Source of the DNA: Candidatus Latescibacterota bacterium
GTDB taxonomy: Bacteria > Latescibacterota > CBDEFO01
Direction: 5' to 3'
Assembly (NCBI GenBank): GCA_965248755.1
Contig: OZ252149.1
Span: 4,288,001-4,352,000 of the forward strand
Length of the DNA stretch: 64,000 bases
Each line of letters opens with the position of its first letter. Position 1 is the stretch's first letter. Below, in pieces: positions 22,333 to 34,341 of the stretch. Made by a program: the position numbers and the translations under genes. The notes beneath the pieces were generated by a model. The model did not search any database. It had not been told where the DNA came from and saw only the letters and a list, made by a program, of their open reading frames with translations.

Positions 22333-23678
22333 GGGTCTGTCAGTTTTTTTGTGTAAATGGGATTTTCTTCTGTACCCTTTTCGGCTTATTCTATACCAAA
22401 TCTCCCCTCGAAGTGGATGGAGAATTGGTGAATGGCCAAGCTCCAGTTCCTGATCGGCATCGTCCATTTTTTCTTGATATTCTTGAGTGTCATATAGAGT
22501 AACTTAATCGCTGTCTCGTCGTTTGGGAAGCTATTTCTGTTCTTTATTACTTTCCGTAGAGAGTTATTAAGCGATTCGATGGCGTTTGTGGTATAGATCA
22601 CCCTTCGGATCTCTTCAGAGTAGGCGAAAAACGGGATGATCCGAGACCAGTTATTCTGCCACGATTTACTTATCATCGGATAACGGCTGTCCCAAGCCTC
22701 CTGAAAATCTCCAAGGGCCTCTTCAGCCTGTTCTACCGTGGGGGCTCGGTATATATTCTTGAGGTCGGCGGCAATCTTCTTACGATCCCTATACGACACG
22801 AACTTCAAGGAATTCCTCACCACATGGACAATACAGAGCTGGACCTCTGCTTGGGGAAATACGGATTCAATAGCCTCTGGAAGACCCTGGAGACCATCCA
22901 CGCAAGCTATCAACACATCGTTCATCCCCCGATTCTTAAGCTCCGTGAAAACTTGCAGCCAGAACTTCGCCCCCTCGCTCTTTGCAATCCAGATACCCAA
23001 AACGTCTTTCATCCCATCCAGACCGACCCCTACCGCAAGATACACCGCCTTGTTTACGATCCGGCCTTCGTCTCTAATCTTCATCACCAGAGAATCAAAG
23101 AATACTATGGGATACACCCCTTCCAAAGGACGATCCTGCCACTGCTTCACCTCTGATATGATCCCATCGGTCACAGTCGATATCAAATCAGGGGCACCTC
23201 TACACCGTATATCTCCTCCAAATGAGCCTGTATATCACGTGTGGTCATCCCTCGGGCATACATAGACAGTATCTTATCATCAAAACCTGTAAATCGCCTC
23301 TGCCCCTTCCTCACTATCTGCGGATCAAACTGACTGTTCCGATCCCGTGGCACCGATATCTCCAGATCACCATAATCTGTCTTCAATCCCTTTGTGCTCC
23401 TACCGTTGCGCGAATTACCGCTGTTCCTCCCTTCTGGAGAACTCTTATCGTAGCCTAACTCATACGTAAGCTCTGACTCCAGAGCCCGCTCAAGAATCGC
23501 CTTCGTCAACTGCTTCAAAAGACCTTCCTAACCAATTATGTCTTCCGGCTTCTTGTAATCCTTCAAAAGCTCATCAATCAACTTCGGGTCTAGCTTGTCC
23601 ATGTAAGAACTCCTTATGTAAATGGTGGACAACTAATATAACTCATTTCCCCATTTACACAAATTTCCTTACACACCC
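22333..23678 (-). mobile_element. IS256-family element, copy 1 (transposase inactivated)
   Basis: Imperfect terminal IRs GGGTCTGTCAG..GTGTAAATGG / CCATTTACAC..ACACCC; 8-bp TSD TCTATATC (22325-22332 and 23679-23686); 1-bp deletion near 23194 and GAG>TAG at 23528-23530 relative to copy 2. Confidence 0.95.
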
Positions 23679-26576: not shown

Positions 26577-27923
26577 GGGTCTGTCAGTTTTTTTGTGTAA
26601 ATGGGATTTTCTTCTGTACCCTTTTCGGCTTATTCTATACCAAATCTCCCCTCGAAGTGGATGGAGAATTGGTGAATGGCCAAGCTCCAGTTCCTGATCG
26701 GCATCGTCCATTTTTTCTTGATATTCTTGAGTGTCATATAGAGTAACTTAATCGCTGTCTCGTCGTTTGGGAAGCTATTTCTGTTCTTTATTACTTTCCG
26801 TAGAGAGTTATTAAGCGATTCGATGGCGTTTGTGGTATAGATCACCCTTCGGATCTCTTCAGAGTAGGCGAAAAACGGGATGATCCGAGACCAGTTATTC
26901 TGCCACGATTTACTTATCATCGGATAACGGCTGTCCCAAGCCTCCTGAAAATCTCCAAGGGCCTCTTCAGCCTGTTCTACCGTGGGGGCTCGGTATATAT
27001 TCTTGAGGTCGGCGGCAATCTTCTTACGATCCCTATACGACACGAACTTCAAGGAATTCCTCACCACATGGACAATACAGAGCTGGACCTCTGCTTGGGG
27101 AAATACGGATTCAATAGCCTCTGGAAGACCCTGGAGACCATCCACGCAAGCTATCAACACATCGTTCATCCCCTGATTCTTAAGCTCCGTGAAAACTTGC
27201 AGCCAGAACTTCGCCCCCTCGCTCTTTGCAATCCAGATACCCAAAACGTCTTTCATCCCATCCAGACCGACCCCTACCGCAAGATACACCGCCTTGTTTA
27301 CGATCCGGCCTTCGTCTCTAATCTTCATCACCAGAGAATCAAAGAATACTATGGGATACACCCCTTCCAAAGGACGATCCTGCCACTGCTTCACCTCTGA
27401 TATGATCCCATCGGTCACAGTCGATATCAAATCAGGGGACACCTCTACACCGTATATCTCCTCCAAATGAGCCTGTATATCACGTGTGGTCATCCCTCGG
27501 GCATACATAGACAGTATCTTATCATCAAAACCTGTAAATCGCCTCTGCCCCTTCCTCACTATCTGCGGATCAAACTGACTGTTCCGATCCCGTGGCACCG
27601 ATATCTCCAGATCACCATAATCTGTCTTCAATCCCTTTGTGCTCCTACCGTTGCGCGAATTACCGCTGTTCCTCCCTTCTGGAGAACTCTTATCGTAGCC
27701 TAACTCATACGTAAGCTCTGACTCCAGAGCCCGCTCAAGAATCGCCTTCGTCAACTGCTTCAAAAGACCTTCCTCACCAATTATGTCTTCCGGCTTCTTG
27801 TAGTCCTTCAAAAGCTCATCAATCAACTTCGGGTCTAGCTTGTCCATGTAAGAACTCCTTATGTAAATGGTGGCCAACTAATATAACTCATTTCCCCATT
27901 TACACAAATTTCCTTACACACCC
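26577..27923 (-). mobile_element. IS256-family element, copy 2 (intact)
   Basis: Same IRs as copy 1; flanks (TCTTTGAA / ACGAAATC) do not form a TSD. Confidence 0.95.
26630..27877 (-). CDS. IS256-family (Mutator) DDE transposase
   Basis: RNGRSTK, VPRDRNS.F.P, QLCIVH, YTTNAIES; true start may be the MDKLDP ATG. Confidence 0.95.
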   Translation of the reverse strand: MATIYIRSSYMDKLDPKLIDELLKDYKKPEDIIGEEGLLKQLTKAILERALESELTYELGYDKSSPEGRNSGNSRNGRSTKGLKTDYGDLEISVPRDRNSQFDPQIVRKGQRRFTGFDDKILSMYARGMTTRDIQAHLEEIYGVEVSPDLISTVTDGIISEVKQWQDRPLEGVYPIVFFDSLVMKIRDEGRIVNKAVYLAVGVGLDGMKDVLGIWIAKSEGAKFWLQVFTELKNQGMNDVLIACVDGLQGLPEAIESVFPQAEVQLCIVHVVRNSLKFVSYRDRKKIAADLKNIYRAPTVEQAEEALGDFQEAWDSRYPMISKSWQNNWSRIIPFFAYSEEIRRVIYTTNAIESLNNSLRKVIKNRNSFPNDETAIKLLYMTLKNIKKKWTMPIRNWSLAIHQFSIHFEGRFGIE

Positions 27924-27938
27924 ACGAAATCGGACGGG

Positions 27939-28782
27939 TTAAGCAAGTTTTTTGCAATTTTGTGCTTCATACTGTGCCTCGAATTCTCCAGGCGTCAGAT
28001 AACCAAGTGCTGAGTGGATACGCTGATCATTGTAAACCACATCCAGAAAGTGACTCAAATGCACCAAAGCGTCCTCAAAATGCACGTATTCTTGCTGCCA
28101 TACTTCCTCATCCTTCAGATGACCAATCGCGCTTTCTACAAACGGGTTCTCCCAAGCTTTGGCCTCAGATGCCATGCTTATCTCGGCACTTACTTCCCCA
28201 AGCATCTTACGGTAGCCAGCCGCCGTGTATTGAGACCCCCGATCCGAATGGTGTATCTCCGGTCGGTGTCCTTTCTTGAATGCTTTGGAAAGTGCTTCTT
28301 GGGGCAAGGCACAAGACAGACTACGACTCAAAGCCCAACCCCGTATCATACGGGTAAAGATAGCTAAAAGCAGAGCAAGATAAAGCATAGAACCGTTTGC
28401 CAAGAAAATGTAGGTGATGTCCGCACACCATACCTGGTCAGGGCGTTCGATCTTAAGACCCTTCAACAGATTCGGGAAAGGAGGCTCGTGGGTCTTGCTT
28501 TTGGTCGTTAGGACTTTGCGCCGCCTGGGCTTAACCGACAAACTCATCTCTTTCATCAACCGTAGAACCCTTTTATGGTTCACCCGGTATTGTCCCCTAT
28601 GGAGCATCGGGGTTCACCCTCCGATACCCGTAATGAGAATGGTGTAAACAGACGCTCTCAATTGCCTTTCGCAGTCCCTGGTCATCTGAAGCCTGACAAG
28701 TGTAATAAAAACTGCTGCGTGCTAAACCTATTACGTCACATAATAAACCGATATCAAACTCATTCGCCACTTGACGGACCAA
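27939..28782 (-). pseudogene. IS3-family transposase OrfB, frameshifted
   Basis: Integrase-core motifs split across two frames. Confidence 0.85.
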
Positions 28783-29089
28783 CTCCTTCTTCTGGGCTAC
28801 CGAAAGGCGAAGTAGCCGGAGAGTGTTTTGAGGCTTCTAACTCCAAGGTCAAACGCCCTACAAGATGCTCTAACTCTCTAATGCGTTGCGCCTCAGCATT
28901 GTCCTGTTGGGAGTCGATCTCAAATATCTTGGGAGCTCGATCATCAAATTGCTGCCGCCAGCGGGTCAACAACGATTCACTCAAATTGTGTTCCCGGCAG
29001 ATCTGAGCAGGACTCTTACGACCACTTAACACATCCAATACACACTCAAGCTTGAACTCAGGTGTAAAGATACGACGTTTAGATGACAT
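28760..29089 (-). CDS. IS3-family transposase OrfA
   Basis: RRIFTPEFKLECV HTH and a leucine-zipper-like RIRELEHLVGRLTLEL. Confidence 0.9.
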   Translation of the reverse strand: MSSKRRIFTPEFKLECVLDVLSGRKSPAQICREHNLSESLLTRWRQQFDDRAPKIFEIDSQQDNAEAQRIRELEHLVGRLTLELEASKHSPATSPFGSPEEGVGPSSGE

Positions 29090-29624: not shown

Positions 29625-30683
29625 CTACATTTTGCCTTCGCGAAATGCGGTTATGTATTCCATACAAAATTCGTCTGCCCCGACAAGAGCGTTGTATGCT
29701 AACTGGTATTGTGTAGATTGAGTGTCAATATTAGAGATACTTTCAGATTTGATCTGTAACGGATCTATTATCCCGCTGTCGCACCCGGCTTCTACAGACA
29801 GATGGATAAATACTTCGTTTAAGAGCCTCCGGTTGGGCATTCCAAAAGAGACGTTGCTAAATCCTCCTGTAATATGAATCTCAGCGCCGTAGAGGTCTCT
29901 TACCTGTTTGACTGCATCCAGGAAAAACCTCCCGTATCGAGAATCTACGCCTATTGGGAAGACCAAAAGGTCAACGAACACATCGTTGTAGGAGATGCTG
30001 AAGCGTTCGACAATTTCCATCAGCCTCTTTACGTTTTCTACTCTCTCTTTATCATCGTCTGGCATTTTAGTTTCACCGAAGGCGGTAGCTATAATCTGGC
30101 AGTTTTTCTCCTTTGCTAATTCTACCATGTCGGGACGTTCCAGAGATGCGGAGTTGAGGATAGGCTCTCCTTTGGAGTAATCATAGATCTCAAGACCTGA
30201 TTTGATATTGTCCGTTGCGGAGGAATCTATGCTCAGGGGCAAATCTACGTGTTGTTGGATTGTCGGTACTATCCACTCCATAGCCTGAGTCTGGACCTGG
30301 GGATTCGGTGCTATCTCATCTACATTTACGTCCAAGTAGTGTGCACCAGCCTCTACTTGTCTTCTGGCTGCGTAAAGGATATACTCCCGGGCTTCCTCCT
30401 GACCGTCTTTCTTTACTGATATTCCCTTGTCAACGGCGATCCTAATGTGCTTTATCTCATTTCGTTGATACTCCTGCGTTTCCTTGTAACTTTCAGGGAT
30501 TGTCAAGTATCTGATATTCCCTCCAGAATCGGTGAACTTGATAGCGTCAGTGCCGTCTTCCAGCGCTTTGACTCTCCTGCCATCCCTTCTGTAAACTCTG
30601 GTTGTATGTATGTTTTCGCCTATTATGATCAGATCACACGGCACTTTTGGATCTCCTGTGTTAACCCGGAATTGGCACGTCAA
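29625..30683 (-). CDS. Pterin-binding methyltransferase (AcsE / MetH pterin domain-like)
   Basis: IIGENI, GAHYLDVNVD, LSIDS, ILNSAS, GGFSNVSFGMPNR. Confidence 0.85.
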   Translation of the reverse strand: MTCQFRVNTGDPKVPCDLIIIGENIHTTRVYRRDGRRVKALEDGTDAIKFTDSGGNIRYLTIPESYKETQEYQRNEIKHIRIAVDKGISVKKDGQEEAREYILYAARRQVEAGAHYLDVNVDEIAPNPQVQTQAMEWIVPTIQQHVDLPLSIDSSATDNIKSGLEIYDYSKGEPILNSASLERPDMVELAKEKNCQIIATAFGETKMPDDDKERVENVKRLMEIVERFSISYNDVFVDLLVFPIGVDSRYGRFFLDAVKQVRDLYGAEIHITGGFSNVSFGMPNRRLLNEVFIHLSVEAGCDSGIIDPLQIKSESISNIDTQSTQYQLAYNALVGADEFCMEYITAFREGKM

Positions 30684-31529: not shown

Positions 31530-34064
31530 TCAGGAACGGGTGGCGACAAACTTGGAGTCTGGAGCAGTGATGCGGGCTAAAGTCTTAGCCAGGGGATAGG
31601 ACTGTTCTACCTTTGCCGCTCCAACTCCCACGGGGATAAAATTGCCCCCTTGAGCGTCCCAGATGGCCTTGTTGAGACTGTAGCTTCGATCTCGGGCGTC
31701 ATCGTACACGGGATCGGCAAAGACGTCATAAAGACCCTGAATTTCGCCTTTAGCGCCCAGTTTAATGATCACCGACACAGCTACACCACGACTATTGACG
31801 GTCGCTATGGCATCCTCAAGTGCAAGCGGCGTGGGGAACATATTGTGCGACCCGCGTCCATCCCCCTGAGTCATATAAAATCCGTCTCTCATAAATAAGT
31901 TGAGTGCGTTGGCCAGCGGCTCTACCGCCAGGAGCACAGGATCGTCTTTGCCGCGATATTCTCCGCCTGTGATTACGGCTAACTTCTCTGTGGACGCAGA
32001 AAGGAGAATATCGCCCAGGCTCTCAAGAGCAAGCTCCGGATCCCACTCCTCTGTGGTTCTCGTCCAGATGCGCTTAAAGTTAAACTTCTCGGTGGCCCCC
32101 AGGAGGTTTTGTGCCTGGTGCGTCTCGCTTTCGAAATCCAGAAAGATGCGCTTGTGTCCTTCGACATCCCAGACCTCGACGACTAATCCCTTTGCGTCCG
32201 TCCCCTCCAAGTAATGGTTCAGGCTACCGTCTGCTGTGGTCTTGTTTAGGCTGTACCAGACTGGGAGATTGAAAGCCGAAGGGCCAGATTTATCTATAGC
32301 CAAAAGTCCTACATTAGCAGCTTTGGGCATCGGAAGCTCGGCAAAGCCCGGCCCCTGGCCAGATACGTTCCCTGCAAAGACGGGCTCAGGCTTGTGCCCC
32401 GTTACTCGTCCTGTCTTCCATTGATTATATGCAGATTTAAGTTTATCTATATATATACGTTCGGATTCGGGCAGAAAATCGGGCAGAAGTTCTATGAACG
32501 CATCGTCTATTTCTGCTAATTCTTCAGTTGTTCGCCCCTCTGTCGCGTCTCCCACCAGGTCCTGTCCCAAGCCGTACCACTTATACCCGATAATTTCAGC
32601 CACCCACACCTGACGGAAAAAGGTCTTGTATGCAAAAAGATGAATCGGATTACAGTCAACGCCTTTATCGTGGCTCATCAAAAGGTGTCCGTCGTCTCCC
32701 ACTTCTAATATCTTCGACGTTCCATATATTAGGCCTATATTTTTGGCCTCCTGGAGGCTCGCCTGTGCTACGTAGCGGAAGTGATTTGGCGGCGTGGTAT
32801 GACCTATCTTTCCACCGCTGTCCGCCTTGATATCTGAGATAGTGAAGATGGACCGCGCGTTTGCTCTGACGACCACTCGATCTTCATGGTCAGGAATATC
32901 CATGAAGCGGTGCGACAGACGTTCGGCCTCTCCAAAGGCGCGCCCTTCGGCGGTCTCGGGATTAAGGTAAGGCTCAAATTCCCCGTGCATCGTCATATAA
33001 CGGATCAGGTTCCCTGCGTCTTTTTGGAGCCTTCGGGTCTCCGGCCTGTTCTGGGAGAAGATGTCCTCAACGTCTGGCCCCTGGGGGATGCGGCCGTCGT
33101 CGTAGGATTGATACGCGTACGCTACGACCTTTACGGTTCCTTCACTTATGGCTGTACTCTTTGCCTCTTCAAAGCTTACAGGCATAAGCCCCACTCGATA
33201 TCCGCCGTCTTTGCCCCCTGGTCCGAAGTAGAACTCTGCAGTGGACTGTGTGTACTCCCCTATCGCGGGTAGTCCCGATTGAGAGCGGCCGATTAAAATG
33301 GGTGCGAAATCTCCTTCTACCATAGCGGCTGGTTCGTCTTTAAGATCTCCTTCTCCAAAGCGTACCCCAACTGCGTATACCTTGCTCAATCTCCATTCAT
33401 CGGCATCGGCAACAAGCGATTGCAGTTCATTCATCTGGCCCGGTCCAAATTCGTAGGTTCGCACTTGAGATTTAGCGGACCTGAGGTCTTGGATGCTCTC
33501 TACGAGGGCGGAAAAATAGTTTCCCTCGATGCGTCTTCCCGATCCTTTATCCGGGTTGAAAAATAGATTGAAGAGGGCGCGGTTGAAAAACCCCCAGCTT
33601 CCGTTTATGGCCTTTGCCACATAGATCGGTTCTGCGCCTCGCTCGGTGAAGGGGAAGTCCAGGTATCTTATGCCAAGGGCTTGAATCTGATCCTCAGGGT
33701 CCATGTCTATTATGCTCTTACCGTGGTCGGGCTGATAAAGTCCCATTTCATGAGCCTTTTTCAGAGCCTCTGTTGCCGCTATGCGCGCCAGCTCAGCGGC
33801 ACAAGTAGAAGGATTATCGCGGTAAGAGTTTCCGTCGAAGAAGTCCCCGTTATAAGTCGTAATATGCAGATGGAGATCCCCTCCAAAAATGTTGGTCCAC
33901 GCCCCTTTGAGCGTCCCGTTATCCACTTTGTCCCGCAAAAATTGCTCGGCTACCTGGAAGACTTCAACAGGTATATCACCGCCAAGAAGACTGCCCAGAT
34001 CTATGCTGGCAATAATGACATTTGACTGAGTCGAAGTACGGTTTTCCATTCCTTTCAATCCCAT
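31530..34064 (-). CDS. Tandem (double-length) class V fructose-1,6-bisphosphate aldolase/phosphatase
   Basis: C-half: IKADSGG..GH, VGDD.HL.MSH, YGLGQDL, FAGNV.GQGPG, DK..P.AFNLP, YRGKDDPV, RGSH. N-half is a second degenerate copy (FTERGAEP, RSQSGLPAIGE, LMPVS, YM..HGEFEP). Confidence 0.85.
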   Translation of the reverse strand: MGLKGMENRTSTQSNVIIASIDLGSLLGGDIPVEVFQVAEQFLRDKVDNGTLKGAWTNIFGGDLHLHITTYNGDFFDGNSYRDNPSTCAAELARIAATEALKKAHEMGLYQPDHGKSIIDMDPEDQIQALGIRYLDFPFTERGAEPIYVAKAINGSWGFFNRALFNLFFNPDKGSGRRIEGNYFSALVESIQDLRSAKSQVRTYEFGPGQMNELQSLVADADEWRLSKVYAVGVRFGEGDLKDEPAAMVEGDFAPILIGRSQSGLPAIGEYTQSTAEFYFGPGGKDGGYRVGLMPVSFEEAKSTAISEGTVKVVAYAYQSYDDGRIPQGPDVEDIFSQNRPETRRLQKDAGNLIRYMTMHGEFEPYLNPETAEGRAFGEAERLSHRFMDIPDHEDRVVVRANARSIFTISDIKADSGGKIGHTTPPNHFRYVAQASLQEAKNIGLIYGTSKILEVGDDGHLLMSHDKGVDCNPIHLFAYKTFFRQVWVAEIIGYKWYGLGQDLVGDATEGRTTEELAEIDDAFIELLPDFLPESERIYIDKLKSAYNQWKTGRVTGHKPEPVFAGNVSGQGPGFAELPMPKAANVGLLAIDKSGPSAFNLPVWYSLNKTTADGSLNHYLEGTDAKGLVVEVWDVEGHKRIFLDFESETHQAQNLLGATEKFNFKRIWTRTTEEWDPELALESLGDILLSASTEKLAVITGGEYRGKDDPVLLAVEPLANALNLFMRDGFYMTQGDGRGSHNMFPTPLALEDAIATVNSRGVAVSVIIKLGAKGEIQGLYDVFADPVYDDARDRSYSLNKAIWDAQGGNFIPVGVGAAKVEQSYPLAKTLARITAPDSKFVATRS

Positions 34065-34341
34065 GGTTTTTTCTCTCCCTAATCAAGATAATTTGACCAC
34101 ATTCCGACAGGTAATTCTACCTCAATATCGCTCTAGTGTTTGCTCCTTTTCCCAGGATCAGATAAACAAAAACCTGACGTGATAATATAAGACAATTCCA
34201 GTAAAAGGCAAGCAGTTTCTGCTTGGTGCAGGCATATTTAATTCTTTCAAAAGCGCCAGTTGAGTCGGAGCCAAGCGAGGTTTTGAGATCAAGTGTGAGA
34301 ACTGAATGATCCTATTTATTGATCTAAATACACTATTTCGA

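Follow-up and report, generated by a model that had tools for sequence, protein, structure and literature searches.

The window analysed here, a stretch of 64,000 nucleotides from a Candidatus Latescibacterota bacterium (NCBI GenBank assembly GCA_965248755.1, contig OZ252149.1, positions 4,288,001 to 4,352,000 of the forward strand), carries a gene for an 844-amino-acid protein that joins two copies of the class V FBP aldolase/phosphatase (FBPA/P; FBP, fructose-1,6-bisphosphate) fold in one chain. FBPA/P is regarded as an ancestral gluconeogenic enzyme and is a homo-octamer with both aldolase and phosphatase activity, in which the loop around Gln242 is supplied to each active site by the neighbouring subunit. 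In the tandem protein, the first copy (N-unit) has retained this loop and lost the catalytic residues, and the second copy (C-unit) has retained the catalytic residues and lost the loop. Probably, the chain makes up a single composite site for the aldolase and the phosphatase reaction, in which the N-unit acts as a built-in neighbour, and serves gluconeogenesis.

The gene and its two units are located as follows.

31530..34064, minus strand: tandem class V FBPA/P gene, 844 amino acids (open reading frame, Pfam, homologues)
34075..34080, minus strand: AGGGAG, resembling a ribosome-binding site, 11 bases 5' of the ATG at 34064 (sequence)
32889..34031, minus strand: N-unit, residues 12-392, FBPA/P fold without catalytic residues (profile alignment, model)
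31533..32855, minus strand: C-unit, residues 404-844, catalytic residue set present, Gln242 loop absent (profile alignment)

An earlier sequence-only reading of this DNA had described two FBPA/P copies in the open reading frame with a join near residue 405 and had proposed a search with the Pfam family FBPase_3. This family, the only one in Pfam to match the protein, did so in three stretches with 251.6 bits (cut-off 25). Profile-profile alignment (hhalign), with half-protein profiles built from 120 full-length homologues, placed the N-unit on 350 of 366 canonical FBPA/P columns (E 1.4e-35) and the C-unit on 354 of 366 (E 3.9e-60). The second unit begins near residues 404-408, and every motif named in that reading was located, including YRGKDD at 31941-31958 and RSQSGLPAIGE at 33255-33287. 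Direct similarity between the two units was not detected by hhalign, and the best BLAST match between them had an E-value of 0.088. The only solved structures related by sequence are those of ST0318 and the Thermoproteus enzyme; a model of the full-length chain matched FBPA/P structures with a Foldseek E-value of 3e-17. With 844 amino acids and two units, the chain differs from the single-unit enzymes of about 360-400 amino acids. Misassembly or chance read-through was rejected as an explanation, since homologues of the tandem form 208 clusters at 90% identity and 40 tandem loci were found in GTDB genomes.

To follow individual residues, we took the canonical numbering from a natural protein whose alignment with ST0318 contains just one gap of one residue, and compared the tandem with 130 canonical proteins and with two sets of homologues. 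The stand-alone set comprises 148 proteins in two subfamilies (subfamily 1 with 120 proteins at 61-97% identity, subfamily 2 with 28 at about 45%). The divergent set stems from a search of 1.84 billion representatives with the tandem profile, which gave 411 matches. Among the best 150 of these, 45 proteins of 894-6393 amino acids contained a full pair of N-type and C-type units (46 modules; truncated matches were left out and one of the 45 is a subfamily-2 stand-alone enzyme), and a further 8 carried two more canonical-looking units, which brings the divergent proteins to 53.

The following features of the C-unit correspond to canonical positions or depart from them.

32799..32828, minus strand: K413-H422, with D415 and H422 equivalent to canonical D11 and H18 (residue alignment)
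32691..32699, minus strand: GDD 456-458, canonical D52 and D53 (residue alignment)
32559..32576, minus strand: Y497 to Q501-D502, canonical Y91 and Q95 (residue alignment)
32379..32552, minus strand: helical insertion of about 55 residues, 505-562, between GQDL and FxGN (spacing counts, model)
32367..32372, minus strand: G565-N566, canonical G104-N105 (residue alignment)
32289..32294, minus strand: D591-K592, canonical D132-K133 (residue alignment)
31941..31958, minus strand: YRGKDD 703-708, canonical Tyr229, Lys232, Asp233 and Asp234 (148/148 stand-alone proteins and 46/46 modules)
31845..31868, minus strand: QGDGRGSH 733-740, with R737 equivalent to Arg266 (an invariant D735 replaces Trp264)
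31791..31805, minus strand: ATVNS 754-758, a shortened loop without Asp287 and with an invariant S758 (residue alignment)
31593..31607, minus strand: E820-x-x-Y823-P, Glu347 kept, Tyr two residues beyond canonical Tyr348 (148/148)

Three features distinguish the N-unit.

33627..33644, minus strand: E141-R142-x3-P146, canonical E120-R121-P125, present in the N-unit only (148/148 stand-alone proteins)
33531..33584, minus strand: motif NRxxFNLFFxPDKGSxxR, N161-R178, largely invariant in stand-alone N-units and unlike the canonical sequence
33255..33287, minus strand: RSQSGLPAIGE, R260-E270, the Gln242 loop (Q262 in 148/148 stand-alone proteins and 46/46 divergent modules)

Fifteen residues, which we take to contact metal or substrate or to form the Schiff base within the same subunit (Asp11, His18, Asp52, Asp53, Tyr91, Gln95, Gly104, Asn105, Asp132, Lys133, Tyr229, Lys232, Asp233, Asp234 and Arg266), are all retained in the C-unit, and only one of them is kept at 80% or more in the N-unit. 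Conversely, all seven positions that are conserved in the Gln242 loop (Arg240-Glu250) are present in the N-unit and none in the C-unit. The sequence-only reading had claimed exactly this division, with the metal and catalytic motifs in the C-half and RxQSGxPxxGE in the N-half, and had suggested a survey of homologues for the same asymmetry; the split is common to both subfamilies and recurs in all 148 stand-alone proteins. In this set, D415, H422, D457, D458, Y497, Q501, D591, K592, Y703, K706, D707, D708 and R737 of the C-unit are each found in 148/148 homologues, G565 in 147/148 and N566 in 146/148, as are R260, Q262, G264, P266, A267, G269 and E270 of the N-unit in 148/148. The C-unit thus holds all eight metal ligands (Asp11, His18, Asp52, Asp53, Gln95, Asp132, Asp233 and Asp234) in 148/148 proteins, and the Schiff-base pair Lys232/Tyr229, represented by K706/Y703, in 148/148 proteins and 46/46 modules. 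Twelve of its catalytic residues (D415 to D708, without R737) persist in 46/46 divergent modules.

This reciprocity is limited to the functional motifs. When all 179 canonical positions with at least 90% conservation are considered, the C-unit alone retains 54, the N-unit alone 23, both units 20 and neither unit 82, and retention is not anti-correlated between the units (Fisher p 0.48). The complementary loss proposed by the sequence-only reading is therefore exact for the active-site motifs, and was rejected as a protein-wide pattern.

That the N-unit has the FBPA/P fold, as had been proposed, is indicated by a model of this unit alone (predicted local distance difference test (pLDDT) 90, predicted template modelling (TM) score 0.91). 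It superposes on ST0318 (3r1m) with a Z-score of 34.5 and a root-mean-square deviation of 3.1 Å over 330 residues (Foldseek E 2e-25, TM-score 0.73-0.77). Seven FBPA/P structures reach Z-scores of 33-35, and the next match 9.2. Within this fold the Schiff-base loop (canonical 219-230) is deleted, the GQD, GN and DK motifs are gone, and only the Asp53 equivalent is well kept among the eight metal-ligand positions; the His333 equivalent is retained.

The C-unit has also been remodelled beyond the loss of its Gln242 loop. The distance between the QD and GN motifs is 62-65 residues in 146/148 stand-alone proteins, compared with 9 in 130/130 canonical ones, and 56-105 in 37/46 divergent modules (the other 9 could not be parsed). 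The 55-residue insertion responsible for this is helical in the full-length model and lies between GQDL and FxGN, presumably in the phosphatase lid loop. Near the C-terminus, E-x-x-Y-P is found in 148/148 stand-alone proteins and EY[TS] in 129/130 canonical proteins; the residue directly after E820 is variable, and Y823 is present in 45/46 divergent modules. Judging from the alignment, Y823 may substitute for Tyr348 from two positions further on. Asp735, Thr755 and Ser758 are newly invariant. The sequence-only reading had not mentioned this remodelling, neither the loss of Asp287 from the C-unit and the shift of its Tyr348 equivalent nor the replacement of Trp264 by Asp735 and the insertion.

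The recurrence of the pair of a dead and a live unit in at least 53 more divergent, mostly large proteins is new here. The Gln242 equivalent is kept by the N-type units of 46/46 divergent modules. In the 8 earlier-branching tandems, the first unit has Gln242 in 8/8 and Lys232 in 0/8, the second Lys232 in 8/8 and Gln242 in 0/8. These 8 retain Asp287 (8/8), Glu347-Tyr348 and the short lid spacing. Since they are already split and not yet remodelled, we infer from this, together with the tree described below, that the reciprocal loss preceded the remodelling of the live unit. A strongly hydrophobic stretch occurs within the first 45 residues in 40/49 large relatives (Met start, more than 940 amino acids), in 1/120 stand-alone and in 0/130 canonical proteins, as judged by a crude hydropathy rule for signal-like starts. 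The window protein has no N-terminal extension and falls outside these probably exported multi-enzyme proteins of the Omnitrophota type. Among 24 larger proteins scanned, 8 carry other Pfam enzymes, and in 6 of the 24 the tandem is fused to TIM, GAPDH, PGI, PGM, transaldolase, nucleotidyl transferase or PEPCK. These enzymes are normally cytoplasmic. The multi-enzyme chains are P0348, P0349, P0350, P0344, P0364 and P0369, several with signal-like starts; P0337 (3495 amino acids, signal-like start) contains two complete modules of a dead and a live unit. When 20 matches were looked up, two had an organism name, both Omnitrophota (one tandem, one fragment). The motif GGIDF, a taxon marker, occurs in 5/53 large proteins and was not used as such. 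A split two-gene form was considered and not established: each candidate that has a C-type unit alone is annotated as partial or looks truncated, and no search of shorter proteins for N-units was made.

To evaluate the metabolic role of the tandem, we analysed the gene content of its own genome (a single contig of 4.54 Mb, 98% complete). It contains no other FBPase_3 gene, hence no single-domain FBPA/P. Searches for GlpX, for fructose-1,6-bisphosphatase (FBPase) of class I or III, for class II aldolase and for PFK-A found nothing, and those for TIM and for a PGI-like domain each gave a match. The lack of other FBPases is weak evidence by itself, because most relatives in the phylum also lack them, and becomes informative once PFK-A is added as a control. 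In a phylum sample of 121 genomes the tandem occurs only in its own genome and in a relative of the same genus. Of the 119 genomes without it, 106 have PFK-A and 12 of the other 13 a class I FBPase, so that 118/119 have one or the other. As the genome of the tandem has neither, the tandem is likely its gluconeogenic enzyme, with an activity that is predicted. The sequence-only reading had considered a changed substrate range; the genome content favours the ordinary gluconeogenic role.

A single-domain FBPA/P is likewise absent in 38/38 other carriers (best E 4.5e-34, compared with 2.7e-135 for a canonical gene). Neither GlpX nor class I FBPase occurs in 29 of these carriers, and in 16 of them GlpX, class I FBPase, PFK-A and class II aldolase are all missing; many of the 38 are close kin and their completeness is not stated. 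The search for class I aldolase matched no control genome and is uninformative. Two class IA aldolase-like loci in the own genome, G000:C1:182871-183230 (L054) and 1708789-1709189 (L055), are short fragments that may reflect decay or sequencing errors. About 2 kb from a fragmented aldolase locus, transaldolase and PGI-like domains share one 946-amino-acid open frame (G000:C1:178854-180590). Carriers belong to Acidobacteriota (most), Poribacteria, Gemmataceae, Latescibacterota, Nitrospinota, Aminicenantes and Chloroflexota, and subfamily 2 includes Binatia, bacterium HR30 and Methylomirabilales. This patchy distribution suggests that the gene spread sideways between lineages. One carrier (L031, G028:C25) has the tandem gene broken into two open reading frames, and a Gemmataceae genome (G020) has pieces of at least two tandem copies at contig ends.

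Taken together, we propose that the tandem would catalyse the step from triose phosphates to fructose-6-phosphate in gluconeogenesis. The roles of the individual residues and the contribution of the neighbouring subunit are taken over from the canonical FBPA/P octamer. Lys706 would form the Schiff base with dihydroxyacetone phosphate, with Tyr703 as acid/base for the condensation with glyceraldehyde-3-phosphate. The 1-phosphate would then be hydrolysed through the action of magnesium ions bound to Asp415, His422, Asp457, Asp458, Gln501, Asp591, Asp707 and Asp708. The N-unit would contribute Gln262-Ser263 to the pocket for the 6-phosphate and so complete it, which in the octamer is the part of the neighbouring subunit. 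Because each unit has preserved only one side of the former interface between subunits, the N-unit would serve as a built-in structural partner. We infer the contact between the two units, the activities and the oligomeric state. The site would in this way be independent of homo-oligomer assembly, and this may explain the use of the pair as a module in large multi-enzyme chains.

Several observations weigh against this proposal. Asp287, 99% conserved in canonical proteins, is found in neither unit (its position falls into a three-residue gap of the C-unit and varies in the N-unit), Tyr348, conserved at 100%, is off its canonical register in the C-unit, and the Arg266 equivalent is present in only 16/46 divergent modules. 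According to the available part of PMC8740755, an ST0318 mutant at this Tyr348 position (Y347T in that paper's numbering) has no FBPase activity. In the full-length model all active-site loops are of low confidence, with pLDDT of about 58-62 for the Gln loop of the N-unit, and the protein scores 235.7 bits with the NCBIfam equivalog NF041126, below its cut-off of 520. In the own genome, other routes could run through one gene of the inositol-monophosphatase family and three of the transaldolase family, and among the other carriers 22/38 have PFK-A and 9/38 another FBPase. Finally, export does not require a tandem, because P0451 (798 amino acids) combines a signal-like N-terminus with a single canonical-type unit in which the Gln loop is kept alongside the catalytic set.

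Some of these points would fit a composite site with shifted chemistry, in which just one of the two activities, aldolase or phosphatase, is left or a different sugar bisphosphate, for instance sedoheptulose-1,7-bisphosphate, is the substrate. The loss of Asp287, the shifted Tyr823, the insertion by the site and the newly invariant Asp735, Thr755 and Ser758 all agree with it, and the family can switch substrate: in the available part of PMC8740755, Coxiella CinF is described as having lost activity on fructose-1,6-bisphosphate and acting on protein. Nevertheless, we regard such a shift as unlikely, as the aldolase residues Tyr703 and Lys706 and the full metal set are invariant, the genome has no other detected route from fructose-1,6-bisphosphate to fructose-6-phosphate, and the fusion partners are gluconeogenic enzymes. 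Still less likely is an N-unit that serves only as a scaffold for folding or oligomerisation, with a structural Gln loop and a self-sufficient C-unit site. Of the 37 residues that are invariant in the N-unit, the majority are Gly, Pro or aromatic or are found outside the Gln loop, and the new invariant C-unit residues could replace the lost contact. Against this stands the fact that the C-unit has deleted exactly the Gln242 loop, that no more than seven positions of the N-unit or linker, Gln262 among them, are invariant across a 136-sequence alignment, and that Gln262 is, out of 21 N-unit positions checked, the sole one retained in all 46 divergent modules. Least probable by a small step, and very doubtful, is a dead N-unit site acting as an allosteric ligand sensor of the live one, in line with the regulatory role that the sequence-only reading had raised: the N161-R178 motif, largely invariant in stand-alone N-units and different from the canonical sequence, and Asp63 of the N-unit (in 99% of subfamily 1) could be read in its favour, but the old-pocket positions (Asp11, His18, Tyr91, Gln95, Asn105 and Arg266) are variable rather than re-conserved, and the motif, which may simply be interface, is not kept in the larger divergent proteins. 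The composite site with ordinary chemistry thus remains the reading that we prefer.

In a tree of units, the dead units form one clade (support 100/100) and the live units another (92/60). The two clades show similar inner branching, an indication that the pair arose once and long ago. Sisterhood of the two clades was neither shown nor rejected (approximately unbiased test, p 0.31; LG+G4 without mixture model, long branches), and the sequences are equally consistent with a duplication, as proposed by the sequence-only reading, and with a fusion of two already diverged paralogues. In a tree of joined units (30 rows, covering 15/46 modules and 8/148 stand-alone proteins; long branches, no mixture model), the stand-alone enzymes branch from within the large proteins (bootstrap 99), and the sister of subfamily 1 is a 1139-amino-acid protein with a signal-like start (bootstrap 100). 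This tree was rooted on an early-branching tandem, a root that rests on the retention of canonical residues. Tentatively, and with slightly less than an even chance in our estimation, the tandem arose in exported multi-enzyme proteins of the Omnitrophota type, from which cytoplasmic enzymes were later cut out, spread and took over gluconeogenesis. The tandem would first have turned an enzyme with a two-subunit site into a one-chain module. The enzymes of 840-900 amino acids in Acidobacteriota, Poribacteria, Latescibacterota, Planctomycetota and Binatia would then have been excised, perhaps repeatedly, losing the signal peptide and settling in hosts without PFK-A and other FBPases. Because the search was made with a tandem profile, it has no bearing on how rare single units may be among large proteins; P0451 is one such case.

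The neighbourhood of the gene shows no context common across phyla. In the window it is flanked by genes for a pterin-binding protein, MoaE and an ABC transporter, which are uninformative on function. The pterin-binding-family gene (29625-30683) adjoins the tandem gene, and a member of this family lies within a few kb of the tandem in four Poribacteria loci. Two near-identical transposase-like genes, presumably IS256-like, are located at 22386-23518 and 26630-27877, the first split in two open reading frames, and IS3-like pieces at 27939-29089. A promoter and terminator scan gave results near chance level.

The widespread one-chain form with its asymmetric site represents a natural experiment that isolates the contribution of the neighbouring subunit and puts to the test whether substitutes for Asp287 and Tyr348 are possible. 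As its score falls below the equivalog cut-off, metabolic reconstructions may miss or doubt the fructose-1,6-bisphosphate step in carriers. Moreover, an enzyme of 840 amino acids can be expressed and so gives access to the sugar-phosphate domains that occur in large proteins of the Omnitrophota type, and if the tree is right, a core metabolic enzyme would be derived from an exported multi-domain protein.

Our literature searches found no description of a tandem FBPA/P, although phrase searches may miss slash-joined names, and fructose is not mentioned in the available part of PMC10066038. The accessible portion of a study of giant Omnitrophota proteins (Archaeovorins; bioRxiv 10.1101/2023.11.21.568195) lists FBPase and aldolase among the rarer domains. 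Like the larger tandem fusions, these proteins place sugar-phosphate domains (TIM, PGI, FBPase, PGM) in large membrane-associated or exported chains; they exceed 30 thousand amino acids, compared with 0.9-6.4 thousand for the larger tandems, and that portion mentions neither a tandem of dead and live units nor a link to stand-alone enzymes. CinF of Coxiella burnetii is, like the tandem, an FBPA/P homologue that departs from the canonical enzyme; as far as the available part of PMC8740755 describes it, it is a single unit of 382 amino acids and a protein phosphatase effector, a role of which the tandem gives no sign. The closest known system is class V FBPA/P itself (PF01950, NF041126; ST0318, 1umg and 3r1m; Thermoproteus neutrophilus, 3t2b-3t2g), whose fold is common to both units, whose metal, substrate and Schiff-base residues are found in the C-unit and whose Gln242 loop is found in the N-unit. 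The tandem belongs to this fold family, yet it is 24-26% identical to a canonical protein, consists of two units, one without catalytic residues, scores below the equivalog threshold, and has lost Asp287, shifted Tyr348 and gained the 55-residue insertion. Pairs of an enzyme and a pseudoenzyme that share a site are also known, mammalian hexokinase I and adenylyl cyclase, each with its two halves, being examples. There, too, one chain holds two homologous units, of which the non-catalytic one helps to form or supports the live site; their folds are unrelated to that of the tandem, and the analogy is one of design.

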